The notes beneath the pieces are model-generated. The model did not search any database, was not told the DNA's origin, and was given only the letters and a program-made list of their open reading frames with translations. This document shows, piece by piece, positions 1 to 19,485 of a stretch of 53,575 nt of DNA. Within the stretch, counting starts at the first letter, position 1; each line of letters begins with the position of its first letter. Location of the stretch: positions 1 to 53,575 of the IMG/VR virus record IMGVR_UViG_3300044497_000088. One strand, 5' to 3'. A program made the translations under genes and the position numbers. This DNA is from a virus. Its lineage: Duplodnaviria; Caudoviricetes.

Positions 1-127
1 CTGTTCGGCAAGCCGGTGGCCGAGCGCACCGTGAACACGAACGGCGACAAGCGCTGGAACCTGACGACGAGCATGGCGTACAAGGAGAAGACCTGGAACA
101 AGTTCTGGCGGACGGACAAAGCCGGTG
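1..127. repeat. Terminal direct repeat, identical to 53449-53575 (circular assembly overlap)
   Basis: First 127 nt match the last 127 nt exactly; the reading frame of the 52855 gene runs across the junction. Confidence 0.97.
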
Positions 128-216
128 ACGACAAGTACGACGAGATATACGGCAAGACCGCCGCTACTGTGTACAAGAACTTCCCGAGCGCTAGCTTCGC
201 TAACTTCCTGTTCTGA
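1..216 (+). CDS. 3' end of the tail protein that starts at 52855
   Basis: In-frame continuation across the circular junction. Confidence 0.75.
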   Translation: MFGKPVAERTVNTNGDKRWNLTTSMAYKEKTWNKFWRTDKAGDDKYDEIYGKTAATVYKNFPSASFANFLF

Positions 217-938
217 TGCCTACAGGCCACGTAGACACGATAGCAGAGTACGTCAGGGGCGACCGTCTGAAAGCGGACGACGTCAACGCGATGGTCGCGC
301 GCCTCCAGGAGCCCGACGCCGACCGGGAGCAGTGGAAGCACGAGCAGGAGCCGTATCTCGCGCCGTTCAAGAACACGGACGCCGGCGTGGCCCCGGCCGG
401 GGCCGTGATGCTCCCGTCGGCGGTCGCGTCGATCGTGGGCAACCGCGGCCACGAGGTGACGAAGCCCGGGGCGGACGGCGTGCCGATGATGCTCGTCGCC
501 AACCTCATCTCACCGACGCCGGCGGCTAGCCGAGGGTGGGCGCGGTGGGCGTGGCAGGGCGCGTGGTGCCAGTATGACAACGCGAATACCCCGGCGTTCG
601 GCGAGAGGTGGGGCACGTCCAGTGGGTCGTGGCTGCTCAAGAAGGGGGAGTCCGGTAACTTCGAAGCGACCGGCGAGAAGTTCGACATGGGCAGCCTGCA
701 CCTCGGTCGGTTCGTCCAGCGACCGTTGGCACGGTTCCGTGGGATCACCGTCGACCCGCTGACCAAGGGTGGCGCGGCCGGGACCGTCACGAGGTACAAG
801 CCTGGCACGACGACCGACTCGGGCGTAGCGGACGAGGTGCTCAACGAGCTGGTGACCGTGGCGGCCGGCAAGGTGGCGTACTACTTCCTGGAGAACGGAA
901 AGTTCTACCTCGACGCCGTGGAGTGCCCGTTCGCATGA
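216..938 (+). CDS. Putative tail-tip structural protein
   Basis: TGATG-coupled to the previous gene; tail module position. Confidence 0.55.
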   Translation: MPTGHVDTIAEYVRGDRLKADDVNAMVARLQEPDADREQWKHEQEPYLAPFKNTDAGVAPAGAVMLPSAVASIVGNRGHEVTKPGADGVPMMLVANLISPTPAASRGWARWAWQGAWCQYDNANTPAFGERWGTSSGSWLLKKGESGNFEATGEKFDMGSLHLGRFVQRPLARFRGITVDPLTKGGAAGTVTRYKPGTTTDSGVADEVLNELVTVAAGKVAYYFLENGKFYLDAVECPFA

Positions 939-2122
939 GCTGGCTAGACCTACTGATGATGCTGTTGCCGCTGGTGGCGATGGTGGTATGCTGCTGCTCT
1001 TCCGACACCTGCACCATCTTCACCGACGACTTCTCCACGGATCAGCTGGCGACAGAGTACACGACCAGCGCGGGAACGTGGGCGGTAAGCGGCGGCAAAG
1101 TCACCTGCACGACAGCTTCGGCGCTCATTACTTGCGATACGACAGTAACTGGTGGTCTGACGGCGGTTTTTGCATCCGTCACATTTACCCCAGCAACGAC
1201 CAGCGACATCGGACGGCTGGTCATTGGCTACTCAGACGGCAACAATTATTGGTTCGCGGAAGTTCAAGCCGGCGCGTTTCACGGCACGCTGAAATTTTTC
1301 CAACGCAGCGCTGGGACGGATACCCAAAAGGGGGCGACTCAGACGATCACAGGATTCCAGGCCACGGAGACCGCGACGATCCAAATGTGCTATTCGACCG
1401 GCAACGTATTTGCCTATGTCCAAGCCGGGGCGAGCGCAGCAGGGGTCCAGGCCGGCGGGACGATAACCATAGCCGGAACGAAATGCGGCTTGGGCACTGG
1501 GTCCGGAAGCTCGTCGTGCGCGTTCGACGACTTCAGCTTCTCGAAGCACTACACGGACGACCCGACTTGTAATTTTTGCAACTTGCTGTGCAACCCTTGC
1601 CCAGACAAACTACCTGATACGATCGAAGTCACCTTGCCATCGACGGTTTACAACGGGGCTCAAGACGCTGGCGGTACAGGCGTAAACGACACTTGCTGCA
1701 ACGCGCAGAATTCGCGGACATTCGTTCTCGACTTGCGCGGAGTGGATCAGCAGCACGCCGTTCAACTATGCGCAGGGATGCCGACTCCAAGTATCTGCTA
1801 TTACGAATACCTGGAAATTATTTGCAGCGAGGGCGGTCCCTTTGGCGATGAACGGCTCCAAGTAACCGCATGGTTCGACGTTTCAGCCGGAGCGGGAACG
1901 CTCTATGTGGTCTTGCTGGACGGGCCAGTAGGCGGGTTCGATGTCACTAGCCCGAACACAGAAATGGTTTACAGGTTGACTGGGATCGACATTACCGACT
2001 TGTGCGAAGGCGCTACGTTGAGCGTTCCGTTTCTGGCGAAATACACGACTGGCTGTAGTACTTCCGGCTTCCTCGGTTGTAAGCCGGCAACGACCCTCGG
2101 TAATCTGTCCGTGGATACATGA
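935..2122 (+). CDS. Cys/Thr-rich tail fibre or receptor-binding protein with a concanavalin-A-like lectin region
   Basis: Hydrophobic N-terminus followed by CCC; FTDDFS...GTWAVSGG...FDDF pattern typical of lectin beta-sandwich domains; lower GC than the core genome. Confidence 0.55.
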   Translation: MSWLDLLMMLLPLVAMVVCCCSSDTCTIFTDDFSTDQLATEYTTSAGTWAVSGGKVTCTTASALITCDTTVTGGLTAVFASVTFTPATTSDIGRLVIGYSDGNNYWFAEVQAGAFHGTLKFFQRSAGTDTQKGATQTITGFQATETATIQMCYSTGNVFAYVQAGASAAGVQAGGTITIAGTKCGLGTGSGSSSCAFDDFSFSKHYTDDPTCNFCNLLCNPCPDKLPDTIEVTLPSTVYNGAQDAGGTGVNDTCCNAQNSRTFVLDLRGVDQQHAVQLCAGMPTPSICYYEYLEIICSEGGPFGDERLQVTAWFDVSAGAGTLYVVLLDGPVGGFDVTSPNTEMVYRLTGIDITDLCEGATLSVPFLAKYTTGCSTSGFLGCKPATTLGNLSVDT

Positions 2123-2565
2123 TCTGCAACATGCAAAAGCAGCCAGACGGGCATTGGGTCTGCCCGACGTGTGGCTATCGAACCAAGCGGCCATACGACT
2201 CACTGCCGAGCAAGCAGTGCGGCGAGAATAGAGGTCCGACAGTCATGGGCCGCCCCGGCGACCACCTTCACAAGCTCCTTGAATCGCTTGGCGCTAAGCC
2301 GACGAACTCATGCGGCTGTGCGGCGAAGATTGCGGAAATGAACAGCGGTGGCGTGGGGTGGTGCAAGGAGCATCGGGCCGAGATAATCGACCACCTCAAT
2401 AAGGCGTATCACGGCCTAACGTGGTCCGAAGTTGCCGGGGCTGCGGCTGCGGCTGTTGCGTCTGGGCTGGCGCTCAAGCTAAACTCGCTGGACGTTTGCG
2501 GCTCGCTGGTCGACTTGGCGATTGAGCGGGCGGAAGTCTCTAGTCGGCGCGCACCTCGCTCATGA
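2119..2565 (+). CDS. Cys-rich hypothetical protein (possible fibre partner)
   Basis: CPTC and CGC motifs; ATGA-coupled to the fibre gene; last gene of the plus-strand block. Confidence 0.55.
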   Translation: MICNMQKQPDGHWVCPTCGYRTKRPYDSLPSKQCGENRGPTVMGRPGDHLHKLLESLGAKPTNSCGCAAKIAEMNSGGVGWCKEHRAEIIDHLNKAYHGLTWSEVAGAAAAAVASGLALKLNSLDVCGSLVDLAIERAEVSSRRAPRS

Positions 2566-2956
2566 TTGGGCACACCTCGCGCATCTCCGGGGCCCAGTCG
2601 GGCCCCTCCGGCAGGTCGGCCTCGAGGCCGGCGAAGACGCAGCCGCCTAGCCCCCGCTCGTCCCGCCACATCGGTAGCCCGCTGGCCGTCGACACCTCCT
2701 GTAGCAGGTGGGCGTACCTGAGCGGATGCTCGCGCTGGCCGGCCATGAGCATCGGGAGCATGCACTCGAGCAGCTCCGCGGCCCCGCCCGGGTCGAGGAC
2801 CACGCGCTCCGCCATGTCGCGGAAGACGGACGCCGCGGCGAGCACCGAGCGGCCGTGCCTCTGCCGCAGGCCGACCACCATGGCCTTCAGGGTCTCCTCT
2901 GGTTTGGGGACGACCTGCGATAGCTCTTCGGCAGTTTTTCGTTGATTTTTTGACAT
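2540..2956 (-). CDS. Hypothetical protein
   Basis: ORF from ATG MSKNQRK with genome-typical codon usage. Confidence 0.5.
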   Translation of the reverse strand: MSKNQRKTAEELSQVVPKPEETLKAMVVGLRQRHGRSVLAAASVFRDMAERVVLDPGGAAELLECMLPMLMAGQREHPLRYAHLLQEVSTASGLPMWRDERGLGGCVFAGLEADLPEGPDWAPEMREVCPIMSEVRAD

Positions 2957-3080
2957 TTCCTGGACTTTCGTTAGGGTAGGTAGGGAAAAATCGGGATTTT
3001 TTACTTTACTTTCCTTCGAAGCGATACGGGGTCCCAGGATCGAGAAACTGGTCCCTTGAGCTTTTGGCCAGGTGGGCAAG

Positions 3081-3659
3081 TTAGGGTGACGGTCTATCAA
3101 CTACAGGTGGCACAATTCCCATGTTTTGGAGCTCTTGAAACACGCACTGGTATTCGAGTAGCTGCTTTTCGACTTTCCTGGCTTCCGCCTCAGCGTCTAG
3201 GCGTTTCTTAGTGACGGGCTCAACCTCTGATTCGTCTTCGACGCGACTCGCTGTGGTGATTTGCCCGGTAGTCTCGTCCTTGACTAGCTCTCCGGCCTCA
3301 AGTTTTGCGCGCTCTTGGTCAGCCAGCCATGCCTCGTGTTTCGCGTGTTTATGCGCCTTCCTCGTCACGCGCTTGACCTCACGAGCCCTACGTATTTCTG
3401 CATAGAAATCATGCTCAGACGCTATGTGCTCCCGTATGCGTGGATCGTCCGAGAACCACTCACCACGTCGACGCAGGGACCTGAAGCGTCTATGTAGTCT
3501 CTTCTCGTCTGCCATTGTGCCGTCATGCACTGCTAACAAAGTGAGTCGGTCGACTTGCCAAACACGACCATATGCTATCCGTTTGGTCACTCCGGACATA
3601 CTGCTACTGTACCCGATCTTGATCGCACTCTGGGCTTCGTTCAACACGAAATATATCAT
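3081..3659 (-). CDS. GIY-YIG superfamily (T5orf172/MUG113-like) nuclease domain protein
   Basis: IYFV...IKIGYS...EKRLHRRF...RGEWF motifs; lower GC. Confidence 0.8.
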   Translation of the reverse strand: MIYFVLNEAQSAIKIGYSSSMSGVTKRIAYGRVWQVDRLTLLAVHDGTMADEKRLHRRFRSLRRRGEWFSDDPRIREHIASEHDFYAEIRRAREVKRVTRKAHKHAKHEAWLADQERAKLEAGELVKDETTGQITTASRVEDESEVEPVTKKRLDAEAEARKVEKQLLEYQCVFQELQNMGIVPPVVDRPSP

Positions 3660-4048
3660 CCGTCTCTACCCTCCATCCAATGTGGTCGTTCCGGTGCGCT
3701 AGACTCCTCCGCCAGCCGCCTCTCGCGGAACCGGGCCGTCTTCGCGTAGGCCTCGAGGACCTTGGTGAACTTATCGCGCGACTGGTCGAGCCACCAGGCC
3801 ACGTACTCGGTCGGGACCTCGTCCGGTGACTCGCCTTGGTGCTGGCCCCGCGGGAAAGTCGCTCGCCTGGCCTTCGCGACGACGCGCGCCTCTATCTCCC
3901 CGTCCACTCCCGCCTCCGGCAGCAGGTGCCGGCCGGCCGCGACCCGCAGGCACTCGTAGAAGCGCGGCCGCCTGTCGGCGTAGAACGCGACCAGCTCCTC
4001 CGCGTCCTCGCGGTCCTGCTTGTTCTGCTCCACCTCTTCGTCCGTCAT
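3656..4048 (-). CDS. Hypothetical protein with a DUF3820/ExoX-C-like motif
   Basis: FPRGQHQGESPDEVPTEYVAWW resembles the FGKHKG..I.EVP..YL.W motif. Confidence 0.55.
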   Translation of the reverse strand: MTDEEVEQNKQDREDAEELVAFYADRRPRFYECLRVAAGRHLLPEAGVDGEIEARVVAKARRATFPRGQHQGESPDEVPTEYVAWWLDQSRDKFTKVLEAYAKTARFRERRLAEESSAPERPHWMEGRDG

Positions 4049-4264: not shown

Positions 4265-4449
4265 GCCTGCCTCCTCTCCGCCGCGTCCGCCCTGGCCGGT
4301 GGCAGTGACCGCGTCTCGCCGTCCCTGGCGCGCACCACCGTCAGGTGGGCCGAAGACCGGTCGATTATGCGGAACCACTTGGTCTTGCCCATGCTGCCCA
4401 TGAGCTTGAACTCGCCGGGTCGTCTTGGTGCCCTCATCTTAAGTGACAT
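4246..4449 (-). CDS. Small hypothetical protein
   Basis: Fills the gap after polA with short overlaps. Confidence 0.35.
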   Translation of the reverse strand: MSLKMRAPRRPGEFKLMGSMGKTKWFRIIDRSSAHLTVVRARDGETRSLPPARADAAERRQACESER

Positions 4450-6437
4450 AGCGGGTCCCCCTTGTTGATCTCGCTCGCGTCGTACCTGAGCGGCGCGCTC
4501 GCGCCGCCCTTCCTGACGTCGGTGCTCGCCTCGGCCCAGTGCTGCTCCGAGTAGCCGACCGCGCAGCGGAGCGGGACGCGGAGCGGCGTGTCGACGGTCT
4601 CGAGCAGCCAGCACAGCGCCGCCTTGGTCCGCGGGTCGCGCATGCACTCGGCCGGCCCCTCGAACACCACCTCGTCGTGCACGTTGCCGACCACCTCCAC
4701 CGGCGTGCCGAGGCAGGCGCGGGCGGCCGCGACGGTCCGCTCCTTCTGTATGTCGGCGGCCTCGCCCTGGCACAGGGTGTTGAACGCGTGGTGCGCCTTG
4801 TCGGCGGGCAACCTGCGGTACCGGCCGTGCACGTTCCGGACGTAGCCCCGGTCCGCGCACACCGCGGCGGCCCGCCGGCTGGTAGGCTTGAGCTCCGGCA
4901 GGGCCGCGTGGTAGCCGTCGTACACGGCCTCGCCGCGCTCGCGGCCGAGGCGCTCCAACGCGGACGCGCGTTGCGATGGGTCGAGTCGGCCCGCCGCGAC
5001 CGCCTCGTCCACGGCCCGGGCGACGTCGCCCACCACGTCGGTGTTGACCGACATGGCTTTGACCGCCTTCTTCTTGCCGCCGCCGTAGCCCATCATGAAG
5101 TTGAGCGTCTTGGCCGGGTCTCGGCCGATGCCGGCCGTCCTGGCCATCAGGTCGTGGAAGTCGGTGTCCGGGTCGGCGCGGTAGGCGTCGATGCACCGTT
5201 GGTTCTGGATGTAGTGCACGATCACGCGGAACTCGATCTGGCTCTGGTCCAGCGACAGGAACGCGTTCCCTCGCCGCGGGTGGATCAGCCGCTTGGCCAG
5301 CTTCGAGAGCTGCTGCATGTTCGGCGCGCGGCACGACATGCGGCCGGTCCGCACCATCTGGTTGAACGACGGGTGCAGTAGGTACGACCCGCCGGTCAGC
5401 AGGGCGAGTTCCTGGTACGGCCGTACGAACAGGCCGAGCAGCTGCGTGAGCTTGCGCGCCTCGCGGACCAGGGCGACGACGTCGCGCGGCGCGTCCGGGT
5501 GGAGCGCGTACAGCGCCAAGGCGTGCTTGTCGAAGGACGGGTTGCCGGCCGGGTTGCCGTCGTCGTCCTCCTCGGTCCAGCCGAGCACCGGCAGGCCGTA
5601 CTGGTTGATGAGCAGGTCGAAGAGCTGGTCGGGGCTGGACGGGTTGACCGACCGGCCGGTGAGCCGGTGCAGCTCGGCGTCGATGTCGAGCAGCCGCTGC
5701 GAGTGCTGGACCTCCGCCACCATCAGCTCGACCGGGTCGACCGACATGCCGCTGCGCTCCATCCGCAGGAGCACCGACGTCAGGTCCACCTCCATCGCGG
5801 CGACGCGGCGGCACTCCTCGGGCGTGCGCGCGTCTAGGTAGCCGGCGAGCCTGCGCACCGTCATGACGTCCTGGCAGGCGTACGGGGCCATGACTGACGG
5901 CGGGACCGATCCGTAGTCCTTGGACTCGCCTAGCCACCGCCTGAGCTCGGCCTCGTGGTGCGATATGTCCTCGCCGAGCCAGTCGCGGCTGAGCGCCCCG
6001 AGGTCGTACCCGCCGCGGCCGAACCCCCGGTCGGAGTCGAGCACCTTGGCCGCGGTGAGCGTGCACCTCAGCGTGGTGCCGCACGGCCAGTCCGGCAGCC
6101 AGCCCATGTCGCAGGCGGAGACGTGGGCGTCGTACTTGACGTTGTGGTTGGTCCACCTGCTGGCCCCGCCGCAGACGTCCGCCCACCACGCCCGGACCGC
6201 GTCGACCGGCAGGTTCGGCCCCCCGCGGTGGCGGACCGGCACGTACCACGCCCCGGGCGCGTCGTCGGCAGTGACCGCCACGCCGGCCGCCCAGCAGTTG
6301 TGCCACGGGTCGAGCGCGTCCAGCCGGTCGTCGAAGGACGTCGTCTCGAAGTCGGCGTACAGGTCGGCCACGCAGTCGAGGTCGGGGAGCTCGTCCACCG
6401 TCTCGACCAGGCAGCCGCCGCCGGGGAACTCTATCAT
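4434..6437 (-). CDS. polA: Family A DNA polymerase with 3'-5' exonuclease domain
   Basis: Exonuclease motifs DFETT, HNVKYD, YACQD; motif A LDQSQIEFR; motif B RDPAKTLNFMMGYG; motif C VHDE. Confidence 0.95.
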   Translation of the reverse strand: MIEFPGGGCLVETVDELPDLDCVADLYADFETTSFDDRLDALDPWHNCWAAGVAVTADDAPGAWYVPVRHRGGPNLPVDAVRAWWADVCGGASRWTNHNVKYDAHVSACDMGWLPDWPCGTTLRCTLTAAKVLDSDRGFGRGGYDLGALSRDWLGEDISHHEAELRRWLGESKDYGSVPPSVMAPYACQDVMTVRRLAGYLDARTPEECRRVAAMEVDLTSVLLRMERSGMSVDPVELMVAEVQHSQRLLDIDAELHRLTGRSVNPSSPDQLFDLLINQYGLPVLGWTEEDDDGNPAGNPSFDKHALALYALHPDAPRDVVALVREARKLTQLLGLFVRPYQELALLTGGSYLLHPSFNQMVRTGRMSCRAPNMQQLSKLAKRLIHPRRGNAFLSLDQSQIEFRVIVHYIQNQRCIDAYRADPDTDFHDLMARTAGIGRDPAKTLNFMMGYGGGKKKAVKAMSVNTDVVGDVARAVDEAVAAGRLDPSQRASALERLGRERGEAVYDGYHAALPELKPTSRRAAAVCADRGYVRNVHGRYRRLPADKAHHAFNTLCQGEAADIQKERTVAAARACLGTPVEVVGNVHDEVVFEGPAECMRDPRTKAALCWLLETVDTPLRVPLRCAVGYSEQHWAEASTDVRKGGASAPLRYDASEINKGDPLCHLR

Positions 6438-6685
6438 CGCGGCACCTCCATGGTCACGACCTCGACCTGCGCTGGGTCACCCTTCACGAACTCCAGGCGC
6501 CAGCCGGTCGGCAGGGCGATCCGCGAGCCGAGCCTCAGTCGCGTTATCACCTGCTTGGCGATGGCTGAGTTGTCGATCGACCCGCCGCTGAGCATGCTGC
6601 ACCCAGGTGGGTAGTACAGCACGAGTATGCCGTCTACCTCGCCGCGGCCGTCCTTCTTGAAGATGTAGTCTACCATGCTAGCCAT
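6434..6685 (-). CDS. Hypothetical protein
   Basis: ATGA-coupled to polA; GGAGG upstream. Confidence 0.55.
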   Translation of the reverse strand: MASMVDYIFKKDGRGEVDGILVLYYPPGCSMLSGGSIDNSAIAKQVITRLRLGSRIALPTGWRLEFVKGDPAQVEVVTMEVPR

Positions 6686-7175
6686 GTTTGGCCTCCTTCT
6701 TGTCTCTCGCCGCGGTCGCCTCGGCGTGCGTCGGTCCCGGCCTGCTGCCTGCCTTCCGCAGGTGCTCGGCTATCCGCCGTTCGCTAGCGCAGATGGCCTC
6801 TCGCAACCCACGACGGTCGCTAGTCCGGGACAAGTACACCTCCGCCTCGCTCTCGCCCTCCCTCAGCCGCTCTCGGCACACGTGGCACCAGTTGAGCGGT
6901 AGGTAGTTGACCCTGAGCCGCGACTTGAGCCTCGGCTCGTACTGCGACCCGCAGCAAGAGCAGCAGAACTGGTCGCTCCCGTCGAGCGGCCGCAGGTACA
7001 GGCCGGTCGGCGTGACCGCCTGCCGGTGCGGGGCCGGCTTGCCGACCTCCACCTGGACGACGTAGCCCAGTCCCCGCGCGAAGCGCAGGAGCGACTCGAG
7101 CCTCCGGCGGACGGCGAGCCCGGCCCGGCCGTCGCCGTCGTAGGTGCGCTTCTTGGTCTTGCTTCGCTTGGTCAT
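6678..7175 (-). CDS. Zn-finger hypothetical protein
   Basis: CSCC...CHVC; coupled overlaps with neighbours. Confidence 0.55.
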   Translation of the reverse strand: MTKRSKTKKRTYDGDGRAGLAVRRRLESLLRFARGLGYVVQVEVGKPAPHRQAVTPTGLYLRPLDGSDQFCCSCCGSQYEPRLKSRLRVNYLPLNWCHVCRERLREGESEAEVYLSRTSDRRGLREAICASERRIAEHLRKAGSRPGPTHAEATAARDKKEAKHG

Positions 7176-7496
7176 CGTCCCCTCTTCTCGTAGTGCTCGT
7201 CAAGTAACGCGAGGGCCTTGCGCAGCACGACGCGCAAGTCCTGCTTGCCCCAGAAGGTCACTGCTGCCGAGTCGTCGTCCCCGGGACGATGGATGAACGG
7301 GCCCTTGAAGTTCGTCGGCTGCATGTGACGAGCCATGGCCGGGCCGACCCCAGCGGCCATGGCTATCTGCTCCCTCGACACTGTGGTCGGCAGCTCCAGG
7401 TAGAAGCGGAGGGCCGTGAACTCGTGGCCCTCCACCGTCTTGGTGAATATCTCGACCCCTGTCGGTCATCTCCTCGGCGTGCACGTTCACTCTCAT
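7172..7496 (-). pseudogene. Hypothetical gene interrupted by an apparent +1 frameshift
   Basis: Removing one base from the G4 run (plus-strand C 7456-7459) joins MRVNVHAEEMTDR to VEIFTKTVEGHEF... and gives ATGA coupling at both ends. Confidence 0.55.
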
Positions 7497-7936
7497 TCTA
7501 GCCTCCAGTGTATGAGTCCGGCCCGGTCAAGTAACGCCAGCCCCGCCGCGCCGGCTGTGGAGGGGTCGGCCCACACCACGCGGGCGACCGCGCGGCTGTT
7601 GAGTATGAGTCCCGCGCAGTGCTCGCACGGGGCGCGGGTCACCACCAGCGTCAGCCCGGTAGCCGAGTGCCTTCGCGCCTTCACGAGGCAGTTCTCCTCG
7701 GCGTGGTAGCACCCGCACCCCTCGGTGCCGGGGCACGAGTCGTTCGGCAGCCCGGCGGGCGGGCCGTTGTAGCCTATCGCGAGTATCTCCGAGAAGTCAG
7801 GCGGCAGGAGCAACGCCCCGCACGGCTTGCGCCGGCAGGTCGTCAGCTGGCCGAGCGACCTCGCGCACGCCATGAACGCGCGCAACTTCTCGCGGTCTCG
7901 CTGGTCTTTGAACTTCTCTATCACGTTCGGTGTCAT
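7493..7936 (-). CDS. dCMP deaminase family protein
   Basis: GYNG, HAEEN and PCEHC zinc motifs. Confidence 0.92.
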   Translation of the reverse strand: MTPNVIEKFKDQRDREKLRAFMACARSLGQLTTCRRKPCGALLLPPDFSEILAIGYNGPPAGLPNDSCPGTEGCGCYHAEENCLVKARRHSATGLTLVVTRAPCEHCAGLILNSRAVARVVWADPSTAGAAGLALLDRAGLIHWRLE

Positions 7937-8089
7937 CGACTATCTCCCATCTGCCGCCCTGGCAGCTCTGTTTCCTCAACCGTATCAGCCGCCTTCGCAC
8001 TAGCTCTGGCCCGAGGCGCCCTTGCCCCGGGACCAACGCCATAACCTCAGCCCGCGTGAACCTCCCGACGTCCGTGACGAGTATGGCCC

Positions 8090-8644
8090 CTACCACGACT
8101 TGGCCCCTGGATACGGGAAGTCCCGGAGCAGCCGCAGCGTATAGGCCCTTAGCCCGGCGTCACGGACCTCCGGGTAGTCGGCGCCCGAGTAGTGCTGGTC
8201 CACCCGCATGTCGATCCCGCGCCACGAGCCGCACCGACCCACCTCGGCGTAGTGCGCGTTCACCTCGACCGCTTGGTCCGCGGTGTACAGCTCCTCCTTC
8301 TGGCCGTGAGTCGCGCGGATACGCCCCTCGGTGGTGCTCACCACCAGCACGTGGCCGCAGTACGCGAGCAGGTCCCGGTCGAGTCGCTCGTAGTCCCGCT
8401 TGCCGAGCATGCTCGGCGTGCCGTCCACGGCCCGGTAGAGCGGCTCCGACATGTGGAACCGGTCCATCACCACGTACGGCGACATGAGCAGCCGATGGCA
8501 GCGGACCGGGTCCTGGCGCCACGACTTGGGCAGTCGCCCGAGGTGCCGGTAGACGTGCGGAAAACCGAGTCGGTTGAGCTCGGTGACTATCTTGCGCGCG
8601 AGCGTGGTTTTTCCCGTACAATCCGCACCTTCGATTATAATCAT
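8090..8644 (-). CDS. Nucleoside monophosphate (thymidylate-type) kinase
   Basis: IIIEGADCTGKTT P-loop; VMDRFHMSE motif. Confidence 0.85.
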   Translation of the reverse strand: MIIIEGADCTGKTTLARKIVTELNRLGFPHVYRHLGRLPKSWRQDPVRCHRLLMSPYVVMDRFHMSEPLYRAVDGTPSMLGKRDYERLDRDLLAYCGHVLVVSTTEGRIRATHGQKEELYTADQAVEVNAHYAEVGRCGSWRGIDMRVDQHYSGADYPEVRDAGLRAYTLRLLRDFPYPGAKSW

Positions 8645-9477
8645 ACCGCCACCTCCGCCTCTATCTTGGGGTGTGGGTCGTAGCCGTCCAGCCTGTACGT
8701 GAACTCCCTCAGATCGTCCGACACTGACCCGACGGTCAGCCTCGGCAGCTGCCGCGGCTCGCGCGACAGCGCGGTAGCCACCTGCTCCCGGTGCGAGTCG
8801 TAGACGTGCAGGTCGCCGAACGAGACGACCAGCCACCTCGCCTCCCGGCCGGTCCGCTTGGCCAGCAGCTCGAGCAGCAGCCCGTAGCTCGCCACGTCGA
8901 ACGGCAAGCCGAGGAACGCGTCTATCGACCGGGCGTACATCGAGAGCGACAGGCCCTCGCGGCCGTCGGCCGACAGGACCGACTGGTGCACCTTGAGCTG
9001 GAACAGGACGTGGCACGGTGGGAGCGTTACCGCCTTGGAGTAAAGAGGATGCCAGGAGTTGACTATGAGCCGGCGGCTCTCCGGCGAGCGCTCGAGGTCG
9101 CGGAGCAGCGTGTCTACCTGGTCGACCGAGACGACACCATCGCATGGATAATCTCGCCACATAGGCCCGTACACAGGTCCGAGGTCACCCGCCTCCCGGC
9201 CGTAGACCGCGCACTTCTCGGCCGTGGCCCACTCGTCCCAGATGTCGACGCCGCGCTCCCTGAGCCAGCCGGCGTCGCTCCGCCCCCTGAGGAACCACTC
9301 GAGCTCGACGGCCACCCACCTCATCGGGACGCGCTTGACCGTGAGCAGGGGGAACCCGGACCGCATGTCGTGCCGCCACTGCTCGCCGAACAGGGACGTC
9401 GTGCCGACGCCGGTGCGGTCGGCGTGCGGCTCGCCCAGCTCCAGGACGCGGGTCAGCAGCTGCTGGTAGCTCCTCAT
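8641..9477 (-). CDS. Thymidylate synthase-fold enzyme, probably dCMP-specific (Asn177->Asp equivalent)
   Basis: DRTGVGT, ELEWFLRG, DLGPVYG, SRR, LPPCH, ARSIDAFLGLPFDVASY, DLHVYDSH. Confidence 0.93.
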   Translation of the reverse strand: MRSYQQLLTRVLELGEPHADRTGVGTTSLFGEQWRHDMRSGFPLLTVKRVPMRWVAVELEWFLRGRSDAGWLRERGVDIWDEWATAEKCAVYGREAGDLGPVYGPMWRDYPCDGVVSVDQVDTLLRDLERSPESRRLIVNSWHPLYSKAVTLPPCHVLFQLKVHQSVLSADGREGLSLSMYARSIDAFLGLPFDVASYGLLLELLAKRTGREARWLVVSFGDLHVYDSHREQVATALSREPRQLPRLTVGSVSDDLREFTYRLDGYDPHPKIEAEVAV

Positions 9478-10025
9478 CGTTGCCTCCCTTCCATCGTTTG
9501 GCCTGGAAACTTCCAGCGGTCGTCGTCTATCGACATCTGCTTCTGAGTCTCCCTGTACTCGAGCAGCACCCTCGCCAGGTCCGGCGGCACGTAGTCCGGA
9601 CCCTTCACCAGTATACGCTTCGATCGGTCGGCCTGCTCCGCCTTGGTCATGTTGCTGCGGTGCACCTCGAGGAACGCCTCCGCGACAGGCAGGTCGAAGG
9701 TCGACGCCGTCCCGAGCAGCACGTACAGCAGGTCGGCCAGCGCGTCCAGCAGCTCCGCCTCGTCGCCGCTCTCCAGGGCCGCGAGACACTCGCCGACCTC
9801 CTCGACCAGCAGCTGCGCCCGTAGGCCGCGCGGCTGGTCGGCCCACATGAGCAGCCACCTGGCCGTCTCCAGCAGCTGGCCGGACGCCTCCCGCAGCGCA
9901 GTCGCCAGCGCGTCGTGGCCGGTGTGGCGCTCGCCCCACCCGAGCGGGACGCCGACGTCTATGCCGTGCCTCCGTTGGAACTCCTCGACCATCGACTGTG
10001 CCTCTCGTATCGTCGTCATCGTCAT
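9474..10025 (-). CDS. MazG-like dNTP pyrophosphohydrolase (DR2231/PRA-PH-like)
   Basis: EEVGE...LDALADLLYV...EVHRSNMTK...KGPDY. Confidence 0.85.
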   Translation of the reverse strand: MTMTTIREAQSMVEEFQRRHGIDVGVPLGWGERHTGHDALATALREASGQLLETARWLLMWADQPRGLRAQLLVEEVGECLAALESGDEAELLDALADLLYVLLGTASTFDLPVAEAFLEVHRSNMTKAEQADRSKRILVKGPDYVPPDLARVLLEYRETQKQMSIDDDRWKFPGQTMEGRQR

Positions 10026-10031: not shown

Positions 10032-12887
10032 CTAGAACTCTGCCTCGGGTATGAAGTCAGGCCGCTCCGGCATGGAGCGGCTCGCCGCGACCGACCGCAG
10101 CATGTCTATGAACGGCCCAGATTTCCTGTACCCGCCGCCGTCCCGGCGCAGGGCGTGCTTGCGCACGAGCAGCGACAGCGACTGGCTCGCCATGACGCGG
10201 TCCCAGCCGCACCAGTCCATCAGGTCCTGCTGCTCCACCTTGTCGCTCCGGAGCATGGACTCGACGAACTCGTACGGGAACGGCATTGCCGCGAGCATCG
10301 AGCGTATCGCCGACTGGTCGAGCAGCTGCGTCCCGGCCCGCTGCGCGGCCGTGAACTCCGCGTACCCGCAGGCCCTGGACGAGTAGTGTCGCCGGAGGAA
10401 CGCCGCCGCGGCCTCCACGTGACAGGGCCGGACGTCGAGCGACCGCATGTCCTGGGACGTGCTGAACGTCCGGCAGGCGAGCGCGGCGGCCAGCCTCGCG
10501 AGCTTGTACCGCATCGACCCGCCGTCCACGATCGGCACCGCGTCGCTGTACTCGGCCGACATCTCGGTGGCGGTCGCGTTGCACAGCGACTCGACGTCGG
10601 CCGCGAACAGGCACTGCTCCGGCGTCCTCGTCCACGCCCACAGCACCAGCCGCCTGCACAGGTCGGCCGGATGCCGCTGGCGGCCGTTCTCCGGCCACGG
10701 GGCGTTGATCACCGACGGGTCGACGTCGGCGTCCGCGACGACGTACACCCAGTCGAACCGCCGCAGGTCCTCGAGCCCGCCCATGAGCTCCTTGGCCGCG
10801 TCCACGCCGTACGAGTAGCTCGCGACTTTGCGGCCGTCCGAGCGCGGGTTGCTGACGCCGAGCAGCCGGGTCCTGGCGTGCGTCTGGCGCTTCTCTATCT
10901 TGGTTATCTGGGCGACGCCGCTCGACCGCATGTCGGTGAGGCTGCCGAGCACCTCGACCCGCGTGCCCTTCATCTCCTCGAGCGTGACGTGCCGCTTGTC
11001 GTGCGTCGGGATGACGCCCCACTGGATGATCCACCGCGTCCCCATCTGGGCGCACCCGCCGAGCAAGCCGGCCACGGACGCGTTCTTGCACTCGAACTTC
11101 TCTCCCAGCCCGTAGTGCCTCCTCAGGCCGGCCGCCACCTCGGACTTGCCGTTCGACGAGTCGCCGACGACCAGCGCCTCCGCCCAGCCCTTGACCACCC
11201 GGCCGGCGTACGTCAGCAGCAGCGGGCTGTGCCACGTCAGGTCCATGGCGAGGTGCATGTCGCGGCGCATCCGGATGCGGGTGACGTGCCGCTCGAGGTC
11301 GGCGTACAGCCCGTCCAGCCGCTCCTCCACGCCCGCCGCGTCCCATCGCTCCGGCCTGAACGCGGCCAGCGGCTCGAGCTCCTCGTCGGTCGGGGAGTAG
11401 GTCGATAGCGCGTCCTGGCACTGCCTGTACGACGAGACCAGCAGCGTGGACTGCTGCGTCTTGGGGTGGGGCAGCATGCGGCCGGTGAACTCGTACGGCT
11501 CGTTGAGCTCGAGGCCCTCGCCGATCGCCACCGCCGGCTGCACCCGGTGGTCGCTCGCCCTGCTGGTGAGCTCGAGCGACGGCGCGACGCGAGCGTCCTC
11601 GGCGTTGTAGTGGCTGACCGCCTCGAAGTCGAACTGCCGGCACTGCCTCGGCACGCCGACCGCCCCCATGACGGCGTCGCGCAGCCGCGCCCGGTCGGAC
11701 GTGACCGCCTCGAGCACGGCCGGCGACTCGGCCGGCACGGTGAACCGCCCGTCGGTCGAGGGCCACACCGGGCAGAGCGAGCAGAACTTCTCCGACTTGT
11801 CGCACTTGGCGTCGACGTCCCGCGGCACGTAGTAAGGGGCCGTGTCCATCGCCGTGACCACGCCGCGGACGGTCACCCTCCGGCCGGCGTGCCTCGCGTT
11901 GACCGCCTCGGAGAGGTGCATCACCACCGGGTCGACCAGCCCGGACAGGCCGGCCGCCGGCATCACCCACGGCTCGCACGCGCCCATCAACGCCCACAGG
12001 TCGCCGCCGCCCGCCACGAAGTCGTTGACGTCCCCCTTGGGGTGGGCCGCGAGGTCGAGCGGCAGCACCAGCTCGAACAGCTCGGCGGCGAGCGGGCGCA
12101 GGGCGACCAGGTTCTTCAGGGCCGCCTTGCGCCCGTGGTCGTCGACGTCGCCGCAGACGTACACGCCCTTGCCGCCGAGCTGGCGCAGCATCTCGACCGG
12201 TATCAGTTTCTCGCCGATGGTCGGCGTCACGCACCCGACGCCGTGCGGGTTGAGCTCCCTCGCGCCGACGATGGCCTTCATCTCGCCGCCGACCAAGACG
12301 ACCGTGCCGTACCTGAGCTGCTCGGCCGGGTACCACCTGGCCTGGCCGCGGCCGCGCATGTTCCGCATCTTGTCCGCGCCGGCCGCGCCGGGCAGGTACC
12401 TGCGGACGTTGACCCAGTCGCCGCGCTCGTTCGGTACCGGTATCGTCACGCGGCCCTGGTCCTCGCCGAGCCGGTAGTACGCTATGTCGGCGTCGGTGAG
12501 GGCGCGGTCGCGGAGGGCCTTCAGCAGCGGGCCGGCCTCCCATATCTTGCCGTGCCACCGCTCGACCACCGACGGCTCGACTATCCGCACGTCGTCGAGG
12601 TCGTACCGCTGCGAGAGCTCCTCTAGTATCACGGACCGCGGCTGCCTCGCCGCGCCGGACAGCAGCTCTACCAGGTCGCCGGACCGCATGCAGCCGGCGG
12701 CGTGGCAGTTGAAGACGCGCTTGCTGAGGCTGACCGAGCAGGACGGGCTCTGGTCGTCGTGGAACGGGCAGCGGACCTTGACCTCGTCGTCGCCCGCCCA
12801 GACGTGCTTGAGCTGGTAGCGCTCGAGCTCGGCGAGCACGCTTATCTCGGTGGGCCTCGTCGCCATGTGGGCTCGCGGTCGGTCCAT
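10032..12887 (-). CDS. Primase (CHC2 Zn finger + Toprim) fused to an MCM-like AAA+ helicase
   Basis: CPFHDD...CHAAGC; GE, DVD and DVND Toprim motifs; GDSSNGKS, ASVAGL, TLEE, ARTRLLGVSNP, LRRFD follow the MCM motif order. Confidence 0.85.
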   Translation of the reverse strand: MDRPRAHMATRPTEISVLAELERYQLKHVWAGDDEVKVRCPFHDDQSPSCSVSLSKRVFNCHAAGCMRSGDLVELLSGAARQPRSVILEELSQRYDLDDVRIVEPSVVERWHGKIWEAGPLLKALRDRALTDADIAYYRLGEDQGRVTIPVPNERGDWVNVRRYLPGAAGADKMRNMRGRGQARWYPAEQLRYGTVVLVGGEMKAIVGARELNPHGVGCVTPTIGEKLIPVEMLRQLGGKGVYVCGDVDDHGRKAALKNLVALRPLAAELFELVLPLDLAAHPKGDVNDFVAGGGDLWALMGACEPWVMPAAGLSGLVDPVVMHLSEAVNARHAGRRVTVRGVVTAMDTAPYYVPRDVDAKCDKSEKFCSLCPVWPSTDGRFTVPAESPAVLEAVTSDRARLRDAVMGAVGVPRQCRQFDFEAVSHYNAEDARVAPSLELTSRASDHRVQPAVAIGEGLELNEPYEFTGRMLPHPKTQQSTLLVSSYRQCQDALSTYSPTDEELEPLAAFRPERWDAAGVEERLDGLYADLERHVTRIRMRRDMHLAMDLTWHSPLLLTYAGRVVKGWAEALVVGDSSNGKSEVAAGLRRHYGLGEKFECKNASVAGLLGGCAQMGTRWIIQWGVIPTHDKRHVTLEEMKGTRVEVLGSLTDMRSSGVAQITKIEKRQTHARTRLLGVSNPRSDGRKVASYSYGVDAAKELMGGLEDLRRFDWVYVVADADVDPSVINAPWPENGRQRHPADLCRRLVLWAWTRTPEQCLFAADVESLCNATATEMSAEYSDAVPIVDGGSMRYKLARLAAALACRTFSTSQDMRSLDVRPCHVEAAAAFLRRHYSSRACGYAEFTAAQRAGTQLLDQSAIRSMLAAMPFPYEFVESMLRSDKVEQQDLMDWCGWDRVMASQSLSLLVRKHALRRDGGGYRKSGPFIDMLRSVAASRSMPERPDFIPEAEF

Positions 12888-12929
12888 GTGGTCGCTGCGT
12901 TGACTTCGTGCCGTGTGACTGACTGATAG

Positions 12930-13003
12930 AGCAGGACGGAGGAGTCGAACCTCACCTCCCAGGATATTGCAAACTGGGGCTCTGCCGTTTAGCTACGTCC
13001 CGC
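12930..13003 (-). tRNA. tRNA-Cys(GCA)-like gene with atypical 8/4 fold
   Basis: GCGGGACG/CGTCCTGC acceptor stem; TAGCT..GG..AGC D arm; GAGG-TTCGACT-CCTC T arm; loop TTGCAAT; discriminator T. Confidence 0.7.
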
Positions 13004-13005
13004 GC

Positions 13006-13095
13006 GGGTCGGCCGCAGAGCTCGTGTGGGGTAGTCCTGACGGTCCCTCTCACGAGGGGGTGCCGTCAGGCCTTGGCGAGGTGCGGCCGGAGCCC
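13006..13095 (-). ncRNA. Rod-like 90-nt hairpin with GNRA (GTGA) apical loop, directly 5' of the tRNA
   Basis: Nested pairings GGCCGCA/TGCGGCC, CTCG/CGAG, CCTGACGG/CCGTCAGG, CCCTC/GAGGG. Confidence 0.5.
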
Positions 13096-13100
13096 AAAGT

Positions 13101-13973
13101 CTAGAACCTCTCCTCCGTCTTGGGTGATGCGGCGGCGCCCTCGACCGTGTCCTCGTCGTCGTACTGCGTCTGGATCAGCTTGTCGGCCAGGTAGCCGCGG
13201 TACTCGGCGTGGATGCGGCCGAGCGCCTCGAACCGCTCCTGGTCCATGACGTACGGCGTGACGCCGCTGTCCTCGGCCGGGTTGTCGACGTCGATCCCGT
13301 ACCACGTGCCGAGCTTGTTCTCGCGCTGGCTGACTCGGGCGGCGAACTGGCACCCGTAGAGGGCCTTGGTCCGCCGCGACTGCACGAGGGTGTTGAAGCT
13401 CGTCCCCGCCCGGTGCTCGCCGCTGGCGAACGTCAGGACCATCGGCAGCTCCTCCATCTGGTTCGGCGGGAGGATCATTATCAGGTAGTTGAGGTGCTCG
13501 AGGTGGCTGACGAACAGCGGCTTGCCGTCCTTGTCGGTCGGCCGCTCGAGACACTTCTCCTTGCGTCGCTCCGGGTCGCGCGACTTCACCGCTATCTCCC
13601 CGCGCGGGTCGAACGACCGGGCCCTGACGGCCTGGAGGTCGGTGCCGTACGGGTTCCAGCTGACCCACTCGGGGTAGAACATGACCGGGACGAAGTGGAA
13701 GGCGACGTTCGGCTCGCCTGGCCGGAACTGCCCGCCCTCCCAGACGCCGCGCACCATCGGGACGGCGCAGAGGTCGCCCGGCCGGAAGAGCTCGTTGAAG
13801 GGCTTCTTAGCCTGCCCCTGCACGATCTTGATCCGCGGCGGCACGACGTACTGCTTGAGCAGGTCGGTCGACCCCTGACCGTCGTGGTCCCTGAGGTGGG
13901 CCGGCATCTGCTCGGCCACGTTGCGGACGGCCAGCTCCCTGCCGTCCGCGGTCTTCGGTGTCGTCTTGGCCAT
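13101..13973 (-). CDS. Putative single-stranded DNA-binding protein
   Basis: Replication context; PRIKIVQ motif; acidic C-terminal region ending in Phe. Confidence 0.55.
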   Translation of the reverse strand: MAKTTPKTADGRELAVRNVAEQMPAHLRDHDGQGSTDLLKQYVVPPRIKIVQGQAKKPFNELFRPGDLCAVPMVRGVWEGGQFRPGEPNVAFHFVPVMFYPEWVSWNPYGTDLQAVRARSFDPRGEIAVKSRDPERRKEKCLERPTDKDGKPLFVSHLEHLNYLIMILPPNQMEELPMVLTFASGEHRAGTSFNTLVQSRRTKALYGCQFAARVSQRENKLGTWYGIDVDNPAEDSGVTPYVMDQERFEALGRIHAEYRGYLADKLIQTQYDDEDTVEGAAASPKTEERF

Positions 13974-14081
13974 GGTACTTTCCTCGCTTCGGGTTACTAG
14001 CGGCTTGGTATGACCCGCATTCGGCGGCCGCTTGACGTCGGCGCGGGTGTGTTTTTTAGTTGTCGAACCAGAAGACGACCC

Positions 14082-14162
14082 TCACGTCATCGGTTGAGCG
14101 TAGTGCAGCCAGCGGCCATCTGTGTGCTTGACCTCGACGTGCAAGTGTATGTCGCATCCCAT
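14082..14162 (-). pseudogene. 26-aa ORF, likely truncated remnant (MGCDIHLHVEVK...)
   Basis: TAATG-coupled start; N-terminus resembles a recurrent phage hypothetical family but stops after 26 codons. Confidence 0.4.
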
Positions 14163-14710
14163 TATTCTGTGACACCTTTCTTTTTTCGTATGGTCAACGA
14201 GTACTCGGCGGTCGTGCGGCCTGGGTCGACGCCGGGCGGGAGCGGCTTGCCCTCGGCCATCCGCCGGTGCATCAGCTCCATCATCCCCGGCCAGTGCATC
14301 TCCACCGCCGCGTGCTGCCGGTCCTCGCCCCCGCCCTGGAGCTCGGCCGGCACGCCGAGGAACGTCATCAGCTCACGGTACTGCTCCGGGTCCTTGCGCC
14401 ACGTGGGCAGCCGCACCAGCGACCGCTGCATCGGCACCGCCGTGCAGTACTCGGTCCGGATGCACTCCCCCTCGAGCGTGGTGGCTGCCACGAGGCAGGC
14501 CATCTTGTCGGCGAGCGACTTGAGCTCCTTCAGCTTCTTCCTCGCGTCGTCGAGCAGGCCCTCGGCCTCGCGAAGGGCGTACGCCGCGTCTGCGAGCTCG
14601 ACCGCGTCGGCGCACCCCATGATGAGCGGCCGGAGCTGGCCGTCGGCGGTCGTCGCCGTCTCGTGCGCCCTGCGGGCGTCCTTGAACATGTCCTGGAACT
14701 GCTTCATCAC
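14162..14710 (-). CDS. Hypothetical coiled-coil protein of the replication module
   Basis: Clean ORF, coupled overlaps. Confidence 0.6.
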   Translation of the reverse strand: MMKQFQDMFKDARRAHETATTADGQLRPLIMGCADAVELADAAYALREAEGLLDDARKKLKELKSLADKMACLVAATTLEGECIRTEYCTAVPMQRSLVRLPTWRKDPEQYRELMTFLGVPAELQGGGEDRQHAAVEMHWPGMMELMHRRMAEGKPLPPGVDPGRTTAEYSLTIRKKKGVTE

Positions 14711-14910
14711 GTGTCATGTCTCCGCTCGGGCATCTCGTCGTCACGCTCGAGCTGGCCGATGCCGTGCCACTCCTCGAGCGTCGCGGGTCGTACCCGCAGT
14801 GTCTTGTCCGCGAGAGCCATCTTCGCCTCGAACTTCTCGCCCATCTCCCGCAGCGCACGCTCGACTCGCGTTTCTGGCAACGGCAGCCAGCAGCAACGGC
14901 AGTTGAGCAT
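14707..14910 (-). CDS. Small hypothetical protein
   Basis: CRCC motif; operon packing. Confidence 0.45.
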   Translation of the reverse strand: MLNCRCCWLPLPETRVERALREMGEKFEAKMALADKTLRVRPATLEEWHGIGQLERDDEMPERRHDT

Positions 14911-14914
14911 ATAA

Positions 14915-15328
14915 CTATCCCCTCGCCACGAACCCCTGCCGTTGGGCGTCGAAGAACAGCAAGCGCGGCGGCCGGCCGTACTCGTGGGTCACCGCGCACG
15001 CGACGGTGACGACCGGGACGACGCTGCCGGCCACCACCAGCGAGTCGAGCGACGGGTCGTACCCGTGCCCGCGCAGCCGGCGCAGGGCCTCGCGCACGAA
15101 GTCGTCCGACCAGATGCTCGGCCGCCGCTCCCCGTCGGGGAACACGGTCACGAGTGCGCCGTGCTCGGCCGCTCGCCGGCAGTCCTTGTCCGGCCGCAGC
15201 AGCAAGAAGCAGCGCGGCTCCACGCGCACGTCGAGGCCTTGGACGGTCGGTGAGATCCGGACTCGCGTCACAGTCCCATCGAAGTCCAGCGACTTACCAT
15301 TGTTGAAAGTAGTCTCATCAGTCATCAA
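14915..15328 (-). CDS. Hypothetical protein
   Basis: Overlaps the helicase stop; clean ORF. Confidence 0.55.
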   Translation of the reverse strand: MMTDETTFNNGKSLDFDGTVTRVRISPTVQGLDVRVEPRCFLLLRPDKDCRRAAEHGALVTVFPDGERRPSIWSDDFVREALRRLRGHGYDPSLDSLVVAGSVVPVVTVACAVTHEYGRPPRLLFFDAQRQGFVARG

Positions 15329-17604: not shown

Positions 17605-17874
17605 ATGATCGTATGCGGAAACAGCGTGAACGCGAAGAGCTTCTTCGACGCCGCGGCGGGCTCCCTCGCGCAGCTCTACGGGCGGTGGCTCGACGAGAAG
17701 GATTACGAGGACATCGAGGACTATATGTCCGCCCTCCACGAGAAGGCGATGGCGGCGGGCGTCGCGTTGCAGAACATGACGAAGCGACCGTTCGGCGTCG
17801 TGTTCACTTGCGACGGTCGGACGTACCACATGACGATCAAGAAGAACACGGCTCAATACAAGCGAATAGCGTGA
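17605..17874 (+). CDS. Early hypothetical protein
   Basis: AGGA RBS; stop abuts hammerhead 1. Confidence 0.7.
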   Translation: MIVCGNSVNAKSFFDAAAGSLAQLYGRWLDEKDYEDIEDYMSALHEKAMAAGVALQNMTKRPFGVVFTCDGRTYHMTIKKNTAQYKRIA

Positions 17875-17932
17875 GGTCGAAACGCGCGTTGACTCGCGCG
17901 TCCACGGTTATTTCGGCCGTGCTGACGAGACC
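17875..17932 (+). ncRNA. Type II hammerhead ribozyme 1 (predicted cut after C17902)
   Basis: GGTC-GAAA-CGCGCG[ttgact]CGCGCG-TC-CACGG[loop]CCGTG-CTGACGA-GACC. Confidence 0.92.
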
Positions 17933-17963
17933 ACATGGCGACATGGCACGAAGGAAAGAAAAG

Positions 17964-18320: not shown

Positions 18321-18340
18321 AACATTTTGGAGAGACGGAC

Positions 18341-18601: not shown

Positions 18602-18604
18602 CTC

Positions 18605-19470: not shown

Positions 19471-19485
19471 CATGCCGAACGCCTA

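Follow-up and report, generated by a model that had tools for sequence, protein, structure and literature searches.

Introduction

In Xanthomonas phage Xp12, 5-methylcytosine (5mC) fully replaces cytosine (bioRxiv 10.1101/2024.12.05.627091), as it does in Pseudomonas phage PaMx74, and comparable chemistry has been engineered into thymidylate synthase (TS): according to mutagenesis from 1992 cited in PMC8670742, TS becomes a dCMP methylase through the exchange N177D in the E. coli enzyme or N229D in that of L. casei. In the MetaGPA study (eLife 2021, PMC8670742), no domain is more strongly linked to phage contigs with modified cytosine than TS homologues; positions 177 and 147 separate modified from unmodified contigs, Asp177 homologues are enriched among the modified ones, and TS co-occurs with PRA-PH and dCMP-deaminase domains. 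Here we analyse IMG/VR record IMGVR_UViG_3300044497_000088, a genome of 53,575 bases from a phage of the Caudoviricetes (this whole stretch is called the window below), which encodes a ThyA-like TS homologue with aspartate at position 177 (E. coli numbering) within a cluster of nucleotide-metabolism genes.

A 2024 preprint on 5mC-selective deaminases (bioRxiv 10.1101/2024.12.05.627091) describes deaminases within 3 kb of TS in 104 of 149 modified and 17 of 277 unmodified contigs, lists PRA-PH and DNA_pol_A among the top co-located domains, and reports that five of seven Asp177 enzymes tested gave 5-methyl-deoxycytidine (5mdC) in E. coli. One of its deaminases favours 5mdCTP, and it proposes that 5mdC nucleotides are the source of thymidine (dT) nucleotides in such phages, an idea already suggested by isotope work on Xp12. 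A residue code for the products of such enzymes has since been put forward (NAR 2026, PMC13326640), in which D177 specifies dCMP as substrate, an acidic residue at 143 the hydroxymethyl product and the exchange D169N a hydroxyl product. With Xp12, PaMx74, the MetaGPA study and the preprint already describing it, the module in the window is of a known kind; what sets it apart is the scaffold of its TS homologue and the company that this enzyme keeps.

A ThyA-like enzyme with aspartate at position 177

The gene and the codon in question are as follows.
8641-9477, minus strand: ThyA-like enzyme with Asn177 changed to Asp, 278 amino acids (aa), ATG start at 9477, Pfam Thymidylat_synt
8896-8898, minus strand: GAC codon of Asp194, in the column of E. 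coli Asn177, by codon reading and alignments

The protein matches Thymidylat_synt (PF00303) over the full length of the profile (positions 2-266 of 266) and scores 278.1 bits, where the cut-off is 24.3. Together with the catalytic cysteine, the glutamate and the phosphate-binding arginines, this places it in the thymidylate synthase superfamily; its C155, E58, R21, R135/R136 and R183 align with E. coli C146, E58, R21, R126/R127 and R166. Its best solved relatives are bacterial ThyA proteins (M. tuberculosis ThyA, E = 5.7e-74), and identity to cellular ThyA is about 44-50%, with two short insertions. Within the motif YARSIDAFLGLPFDVASY, which spans residues 181-198, the aspartate is residue 194, and the reading frame as well as the alignments with M. 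tuberculosis and E. coli ThyA place it on Asn177, as the preliminary description of this DNA had claimed from the letters alone.

We compared 28 active-site, folate-site and C-terminal positions of E. coli ThyA with the window protein and with the annotated records of Xp12, PaMx74 and T4 gp42. Twenty-two of them are identical in the window protein, every catalytic one included (R21, G23, K48, E58, I79, W80, W83, Y94, R126, R127, L143, C146, H147, R166, S167, D169, L172, G173, F176, H207, Y209 and V262-A263). Besides N177D there are five differences, all conservative (H51P, I55V, V170A, I264V and similar). Asn177 reads O4 and N3-H of uracil, and it is this residue, which marks dUMP-specific ThyA (EC 2.1.1.45), that is replaced by Asp194. 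The protein shows the features of a dCMP C5-methyltransferase, namely aspartate at 177, a non-acidic residue at 143 (L152) and aspartate at 169 (D186). It lacks those of a dCMP hydroxymethylase of the T4 gp42 type, having L143, H147 and a full V-A-V end, and D186 stands where a 5-hydroxy-dCMP synthase of the RB69/DLP3 type has Asn169. Because it combines D177, L143 and D169, the published product code (PMC13326640) predicts a 5-methyl-dCMP synthase. The preference for 5mC over 5-hydroxymethylcytosine (5hmC) expressed in the preliminary description is thus borne out as far as Leu143, Asp169, Trp80/Trp83 and the full C-terminus fit that code, and its account of the Asn-to-Asp mutant as a dCMP methylase agrees with the mutagenesis cited in PMC8670742. 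The gene is the sole TS homologue in the genome.

By its residues the enzyme is a near single-switch ThyA and in this differs from the Xp12 enzyme. Asp at 177 and the retained Cys146, Glu58, Asp169, Arg166 and Ser167 are common to it and to the TS homologues of Xp12 and PaMx74, whose expected product is 5-methyl-dCMP; however, the latter two carry N143, P147, F83 and another C-terminus, whereas the window enzyme is ThyA-like at all of these. The engineered Asn-to-Asp mutants of ThyA, which methylate dCMP, share with it a canonical ThyA site whose base-recognition residue is changed, but the window protein is a natural, conserved variant in what appears to be a dedicated pathway. T4 gp42, which makes 5hmdCMP, has D143, T147, V83, N176 and no C-terminal tail.

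The aspartate recurs in a 99%-identical database protein (P0001) and in the 69%-identical homologue of a syntenic viral record (L002), and it is therefore no sequencing oddity. Contigs from four further public runs span the region, and none of the 40 differences listed (40 of 57) falls at codon 194. A strain about 98% identical to the window is present in two of these four runs; among the differences listed, its 11 in the TS gene alter only two residues (K207Q and R211K). A non-functional TS gene was considered and ruled out by the conservation in L002 and in the strain variants.

Recurrence of the Asp variants and their link to PRA-PH genes

Of the 120 database proteins closest to the query, 17 carry Asp at position 177 and the other 103 Asn; the four nearest with Asp (P0001, P0002, P0003 and P0005) are 55-99% identical to it. 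A search of IMG/VR gave 84 loci with a ThyA-like gene (9 Asp, 75 Asn). All 27 ThyA-like Asp variants collected retain L143, H147 and D169, and W80, W83, Y94 and the C-terminus are likewise kept. In a FastTree phylogeny of 210 sequences, these 27 fall into six Asp-only clades (of 8, 8, 6, 2, 2 and 1 members), an upper estimate with some low internal supports, and parsimony over the whole tree requires 7 changes. Asn177 is present in all 179 Asn-type sequences of this set. Since Asn177 is invariant there and the Asp variants form distinct clades, the exchange looks like a selected switch rather than drift. Xp12 and PaMx74 lie apart from the ThyA-like Asp clades in this tree. The repeated origin that the tree suggests for the Asp variants is modestly new.

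A PRA-PH match lies 0.1-1.1 kb from the TS gene in nine of nine IMG/VR Asp records. In Asn records it was found anywhere in 5 of 44 and adjacent in 1 of 44, the latter at a sub-threshold 14.7 bits. These counts come from Pfam models run on whole records, for which 50 of the 79 remaining loci were taken in, with two dropping out; they replace an earlier neighbour scan with single phmmer seeds, which had missed the PRA-PH genes beside the second Asp lineage. The nine Asp records represent only two lineages and amount to about two independent observations.

Neighbouring genes

The cluster and its surroundings, all on the same strand, comprise the following.
10032-12887, minus strand: primase/helicase, start of the conserved module, Zn_ribbon_DnaG 35.3 bits
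9474-10025, minus strand: PRA-PH/MazG pyrophosphohydrolase, 183 aa, by Pfam, PHROG and a solved relative
8090-8644, minus strand: P-loop kinase with thymidylate-kinase/deoxynucleoside-kinase fold, 184 aa, by PHROG, profile and model
7493-7936, minus strand: dCMP-family zinc deaminase, 147 aa, by Pfam dCMP_cyt_deam_1 and zinc motifs
6434-7435, minus strand: three small open reading frames (ORFs; 87, 165 and 83 aa) from deaminase to polA, with high GC content at third codon positions (GC3)
4434-6437, minus strand: family A DNA polymerase (PolA), Pfam DNA_pol_A 126 bits

The clustering of a MazG-like pyrophosphatase, a kinase and a dCMP deaminase with the TS homologue, upstream of polA, which the preliminary description had proposed, is upheld by Pfam and PHROG matches and, for the kinase, by fold. 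The stop of the upstream pyrophosphohydrolase gene and the TS start overlap by 4 bases. Its product belongs to the PRA-PH family (51 bits, cut-off 21.3) and just reaches the MazG cut-off (22 bits, cut-off 22); the PHROG nucleotide pyrophosphohydrolase match has an E value of 3.6e-25 and the best solved relative is the MazG-like DR2231 of D. radiodurans (E = 7e-8). From its gene position and by analogy with T4 gp56, we infer that this protein would act as a dCTP pyrophosphatase, supplying dCMP and removing dCTP. Between 9849 and 9903, in its N-terminal part, the strain variants of two runs show a cluster of substitutions with compensating 1-base gaps and insertions; elsewhere in the module the strain differences are scattered single bases.

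The kinase gene lies directly downstream of the TS gene, again with a 4-base overlap. Pfam Thymidylate_kin (PF02223) reaches only 19.6 bits, below its cut-off of 27, and covers the P-loop only, while the PHROG thymidylate kinase match has an E value of 1.3e-9. A phmmer search of solved structures with the single sequence gave a best E value of only 0.06; a profile of 37 homologues found YorR of the SPbeta prophage at 4.6e-14. The AlphaFold model built from the alignment of these 37 homologues has a predicted local distance difference test score (pLDDT) of 97.1, the single-sequence model being unusable at 53.4. Foldseek of the former places YorR first (E = 3e-6, TM score 0.62-0.68), followed by M. 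tuberculosis thymidylate kinase, deoxyadenosine kinases and more thymidylate kinases (E = 6e-5 to 1e-3, TM about 0.5), so that the predicted structure has the thymidylate/deoxynucleoside kinase fold. Its substrate would be 5-modified dCMP and possibly dTMP too.

The deaminase gene follows 153 bases beyond the kinase gene. Its product is a member of dCMP_cyt_deam_1 (PF00383; 54.1 bits, cut-off 25) with the zinc motifs HAEEN and PCEHC (HAE/PCxxC). Solved relatives are a 138-aa deoxycytidylate deaminase (4p9c, E = 2e-11), an S. mutans enzyme, the dCMP/dCTP enzyme 7fh4 of PBCV-1, human DCTD and T4 cd, with E values from 2e-11 to 5e-4 overall. The candidate substrates are either 5-methyl-dC nucleotides, converted to dT nucleotides, or dCMP, converted to dUMP.

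The polA gene lies downstream of the module in the direction of transcription. The three small ORFs before it have no Pfam or PHROG match, and those of 165 and 83 aa are conserved in L002. The MCM P-loop match of the primase/helicase (16.3 bits) remains below its cut-off of 23.3; the protein is 61% identical to its counterpart in L002 and 41% to that in MW202657, an uncultured genome from Manatee Spring that is the nearest to the window.

The order of PRA-PH protein, TS(Asp) and deaminase near a family A polymerase is shared with Xp12 and PaMx74, whose 'hydrolases' are PRA-PH proteins (E = 6.6e-15 and 1.2e-15). In contrast, a kinase stands between TS and deaminase in the window and no dihydrofolate reductase (DHFR) was found there, whereas Xp12 and PaMx74 have DHFR beside the deaminase and, in the genome parts examined, no kinase of the window's family. 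The MetaGPA Asp177 contigs and mSCD-B5, compared by their published description, resemble the window in the domains around the deaminase (Thymidylat_synt with Asp177, PRA-PH and DNA_pol_A) and in the role proposed for that enzyme, dT from 5mdC nucleotides. T4 gp56, gp42, gp1 and cd follow the same logic of dCTP removal, C5 modification by a TS homologue, a phage kinase and a deaminase; however, gp56 belongs to Pfam dUTPase_2, whereas the window pyrophosphatase is PRA-PH, and the T4 genes are scattered and accompanied by glucosyltransferases, whereas those of the window are clustered. T4 also has its own Asn-type TS.

No glycosyltransferase had been recognised in the preliminary description, and none is among the Pfam and PHROGs matches listed for the whole-genome ORF set, nor is a carbamoyltransferase, a DNA methyltransferase or a TET/JBP-like protein; this set was made by hand from GC3 and length and may miss genes, and one of the scans gave the best 25 of 28 families. 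On the same listed matches, hypermodification was ruled out as a candidate.

A candidate enzyme exchange in a conserved module

The L002 record (53.7 kb, 48% GC) is syntenic with the window from an SNF2 helicase to beyond polA; its TS homologue keeps the Asp, and its deaminase, kinase and MazG protein are 71%, 47% and 48% identical to those of the window. Its PolA (11343-14348, plus strand) aligns in two blocks (query 1-398 and 391-667) with about 315 extra residues between them, and this split suggests an intein or an inserted endonuclease.

A search of viral contigs for the kinase family yielded 80 IMG/VR loci (L097-L176). At 61 of them an Asp177 TS homologue is found no more than 5 kb from the kinase gene: in 60 this is a D143/D177 type, mostly abutting (position 147: 56 T, 2 Q, 1 M, 1 N), and in one, the L002 record, the ThyA-like Asp type. 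At one further locus the TS homologue, at a distance of 2.5 kb, is an ordinary Asn ThyA, and in 18 no TS was detected. Clustering at 70% kinase identity reduces these loci to 45 clusters, 30 with the hydroxymethylase signature, 1 ThyA-like Asp, 1 Asn and 13 with none. Most family members have no precomputed Pfam domain and the family has no Pfam model of its own; its partners suggest that it is dedicated to the phosphorylation of modified dCMP. Its loci often also carry PRA-PH and deaminase genes.

Of nine kinase loci inspected, seven match the window in their primase/helicase (46-57% identical), their PolA (42-62%) or both, with the genes arranged in the same order, and six of these seven carry a D143/T147/D177 enzyme that is 23-32% identical to the window TS. 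The window-like order of primase/helicase, PRA-PH, TS homologue, kinase and PolA, with a deaminase in some, is seen in MW202657, L098, L099, L101, L105, L111 and L154, but there the TS homologue has the hydroxymethylase signature D143/T147/D177, unlike that of the window. The window lineage therefore sits in a phage group whose module normally has a hydroxymethylase-signature enzyme in this slot; here the slot is filled by a ThyA-derived Asp variant, the enzyme having apparently been swapped. The fuller scenario, in which an exchanged enzyme in a fixed module and an N177D change repeated several times in nature moved the DNA from 5hmC to 5mC, with pyrophosphatase, kinase and deaminase left in place, and routed all thymidylate through 5-methyl-cytosine nucleotides, is tentative, and we would sooner bet against it than on it in this complete form.

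In MW202657 itself (L006), a 415-aa protein with no Pfam match (13705-14952) lies between the hydroxymethylase-type TS homologue and the kinase, and two annotated DNA methyltransferases follow polA (19781-20787); all three might take part in additional modification of the DNA there.

Proposed pathway and alternatives

The residues, gene order, folds and associations observed point to an Xp12-like replacement of cytosine by 5mC at the nucleotide level, a reading to which we give a probability of roughly 0.65 and from which every substrate named below, and the modified DNA, are put forward. Based on this reading, we propose the following hypothetical multistep pathway: (i) the MazG/PRA-PH enzyme would convert dCTP to dCMP, starving the polymerase of dCTP and feeding the next step; (ii) the Asp-variant ThyA-like enzyme would turn dCMP and methylene-tetrahydrofolate into 5-methyl-dCMP; (iii) the kinase with thymidylate-kinase fold would phosphorylate 5-methyl-dCMP, host NDP kinase would provide the triphosphate and PolA, which would have to accept the modified dNTP, would incorporate it; (iv) the deaminase would turn part of the 5-methyl-dC nucleotides into dT nucleotides, or dCMP into dUMP for the host enzyme. 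Either deaminase route would lead to thymidylate although the phage has no dUMP-specific synthase of its own. Every gene element of the route from dCTP through dCMP and C5-modified dCMP to kinase and DNA, as sketched in the preliminary description, is present, and its suggestion that the deaminase may supply dTMP matches the hypothesis in bioRxiv 10.1101/2024.12.05.627091.

Our confidence is limited because the enzyme is no orthologue of the Xp12 type and has His147, some Asp enzymes were inactive in the published 5mdC assay, the usual product of the module is probably 5hmC and the chemistry is a prediction. The points that weigh against 5mC replacement are these. The window TS is 26% identical to the validated Xp12/PaMx74 methylases, with H147/W83 against their P147/F83, and position 147, which differs in modified contigs according to PMC8670742, is the ThyA histidine in the query. 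In the preprint (bioRxiv 10.1101/2024.12.05.627091), two out of seven Asp177 enzymes failed to produce 5mdC. The DHFR that Xp12 and PaMx74 encode beside the deaminase was not found in the window. In the second ThyA-like Asp lineage, none of four records, one of them complete, has a PF00383 deaminase, and the window-type kinase is missing from the same four and from four further records, so that deaminase and kinase are not obligatory. As the kinase family partners a hydroxymethylase-signature enzyme in 60 of 80 loci, the ancestral or usual product of the module was probably 5hmC. Many ORFs of the hand-made list are without any family match, and the public-run data are contigs, in which base modification is not visible.

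If the enzyme were a dCMP hydroxymethylase or made another C5 product, the DNA would carry 5hmC or a derivative as in the module relatives; the same gene order with a D143/T147/D177 enzyme in that slot, the usual partnership of the kinase family and the annotation of the MW202657 slot enzyme as 'pyrimidine hmase' would all fit. However, Leu143, Trp80, Trp83, Tyr94 and the complete C-terminal V-A-V are retained, and the ThyA Trp residues and C-terminus shield the methylene intermediate and permit hydride transfer. A corresponding role is ascribed to L143 in PMC13326640. All 27 ThyA-like Asp variants also keep L143, H147 and D169, and no transferase acting on hydroxymethyl groups is among the matches listed, which makes a hydroxymethyl product improbable. 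It is just as hard to see the enzyme as mainly a thymidylate synthase, or as one of dual dUMP/dCMP specificity, that tolerates Asp while the deaminase feeds it dUMP. Its identity of about 50% to cellular ThyA, its intact catalytic and folate-site residues, the lack of another TS in the phage and the textbook route to dTMP through dCMP deaminase and TS speak for this, but Asn177 is invariant in the 179 Asn-type sequences while the Asp variants stand in distinct clades, Asp shifts preference to dCMP in the mutagenesis cited in PMC8670742, and the link between Asp and an adjacent PRA-PH gene (9/9 versus 1/44) would be unexpected for an ordinary TS.

A third possibility, to which we give an equally small chance, is a thymidylate bypass in which 5-methyl-dCMP is fully deaminated to dTMP and virion DNA contains ordinary cytosine. 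The nearest named folds of the kinase are thymidylate kinases, a phage without an Asn-type TS needs a route to dTMP, and the preprint proposes dT from 5mdC nucleotides in such phages. In contrast, a dCTP-removing pyrophosphatase translationally coupled to TS fits best with exclusion of dCTP from DNA, selection for modified cytosine enriches for contigs with Asp177 enzymes (PMC8670742), Xp12 with the same PRA-PH/TS/deaminase order has fully 5mC DNA (bioRxiv 10.1101/2024.12.05.627091), and the second Asp lineage has no deaminase.

Genome setting and further observations

The genome has direct terminal repeats, an estimated completeness of 100% and a GC content of about 67%. A leftward arm holds replication and nucleotide metabolism, and a rightward arm encodes terminase, a Mu-like portal, a Mu F-like protein, major capsid protein E and endolysin. 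Searching 50,697 phage records by tblastn with TS, deaminase, primase/helicase and PolA returned no cultured close relative above 46% identity, the best protein matches being 38-46% identical. All 24 public runs listed as holding sequence of this phage are DNA runs, from sediment, freshwater-sediment and soil metagenomes, and no RNA run is among them.

The 785-aa portal protein (39070-41427, plus strand; Portal_Mu, E = 3.6e-10) ends in an InPase domain (PF18823, inorganic pyrophosphatase; E = 5.2e-41, residues 649-772); by these domain matches it is a portal-enzyme fusion. Of 21 ORFs scanned within the structural arm (35430-53574, plus strand), one matches PHROG 10089, 'DarB-like antirestriction' (E = 3.3e-26), and another matches 'minor head protein and DNA pilot', so that an injected anti-restriction protein may act alongside modification of the phage DNA. 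An ORF within 17605-35427 (plus strand) matches sigma-70 region 4 (E = 2.1e-7) and the PHROG RNA polymerase sigma factor (E = 1.2e-5), which may mean that the phage has a sigma factor gene of its own. The left end (1-4000) is lower in GC (61% versus about 68% elsewhere) and contains a 192-aa ORF (3081-3659, minus strand) with a MUG113 (GIY-YIG-like) domain (E = 2e-6); a second low-GC stretch (58%) lies at 28-30 kb.

Significance

In summary, three points are modestly new: a ThyA scaffold that is close to a single-switch variant, Asp variants of repeated origin, and the apparent exchange of one enzyme type for another inside a conserved module. No new class of biology is opened. Methylation sequencing already draws on enzymes of this kind and on the deaminases that accompany them, and a ThyA-scaffold methylase with its kinase and deaminase would for that reason be a useful candidate set. 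The exchange of hydroxymethylase for methylase in one conserved module would offer a clean comparative system for changes in phage DNA chemistry. If our reading is true, what is nearly a single-residue switch in an otherwise ordinary thymidylate synthase would rewire the nucleotide metabolism of the phage, placing 5mC where cytosine would stand and thereby shielding the DNA from many restriction enzymes.

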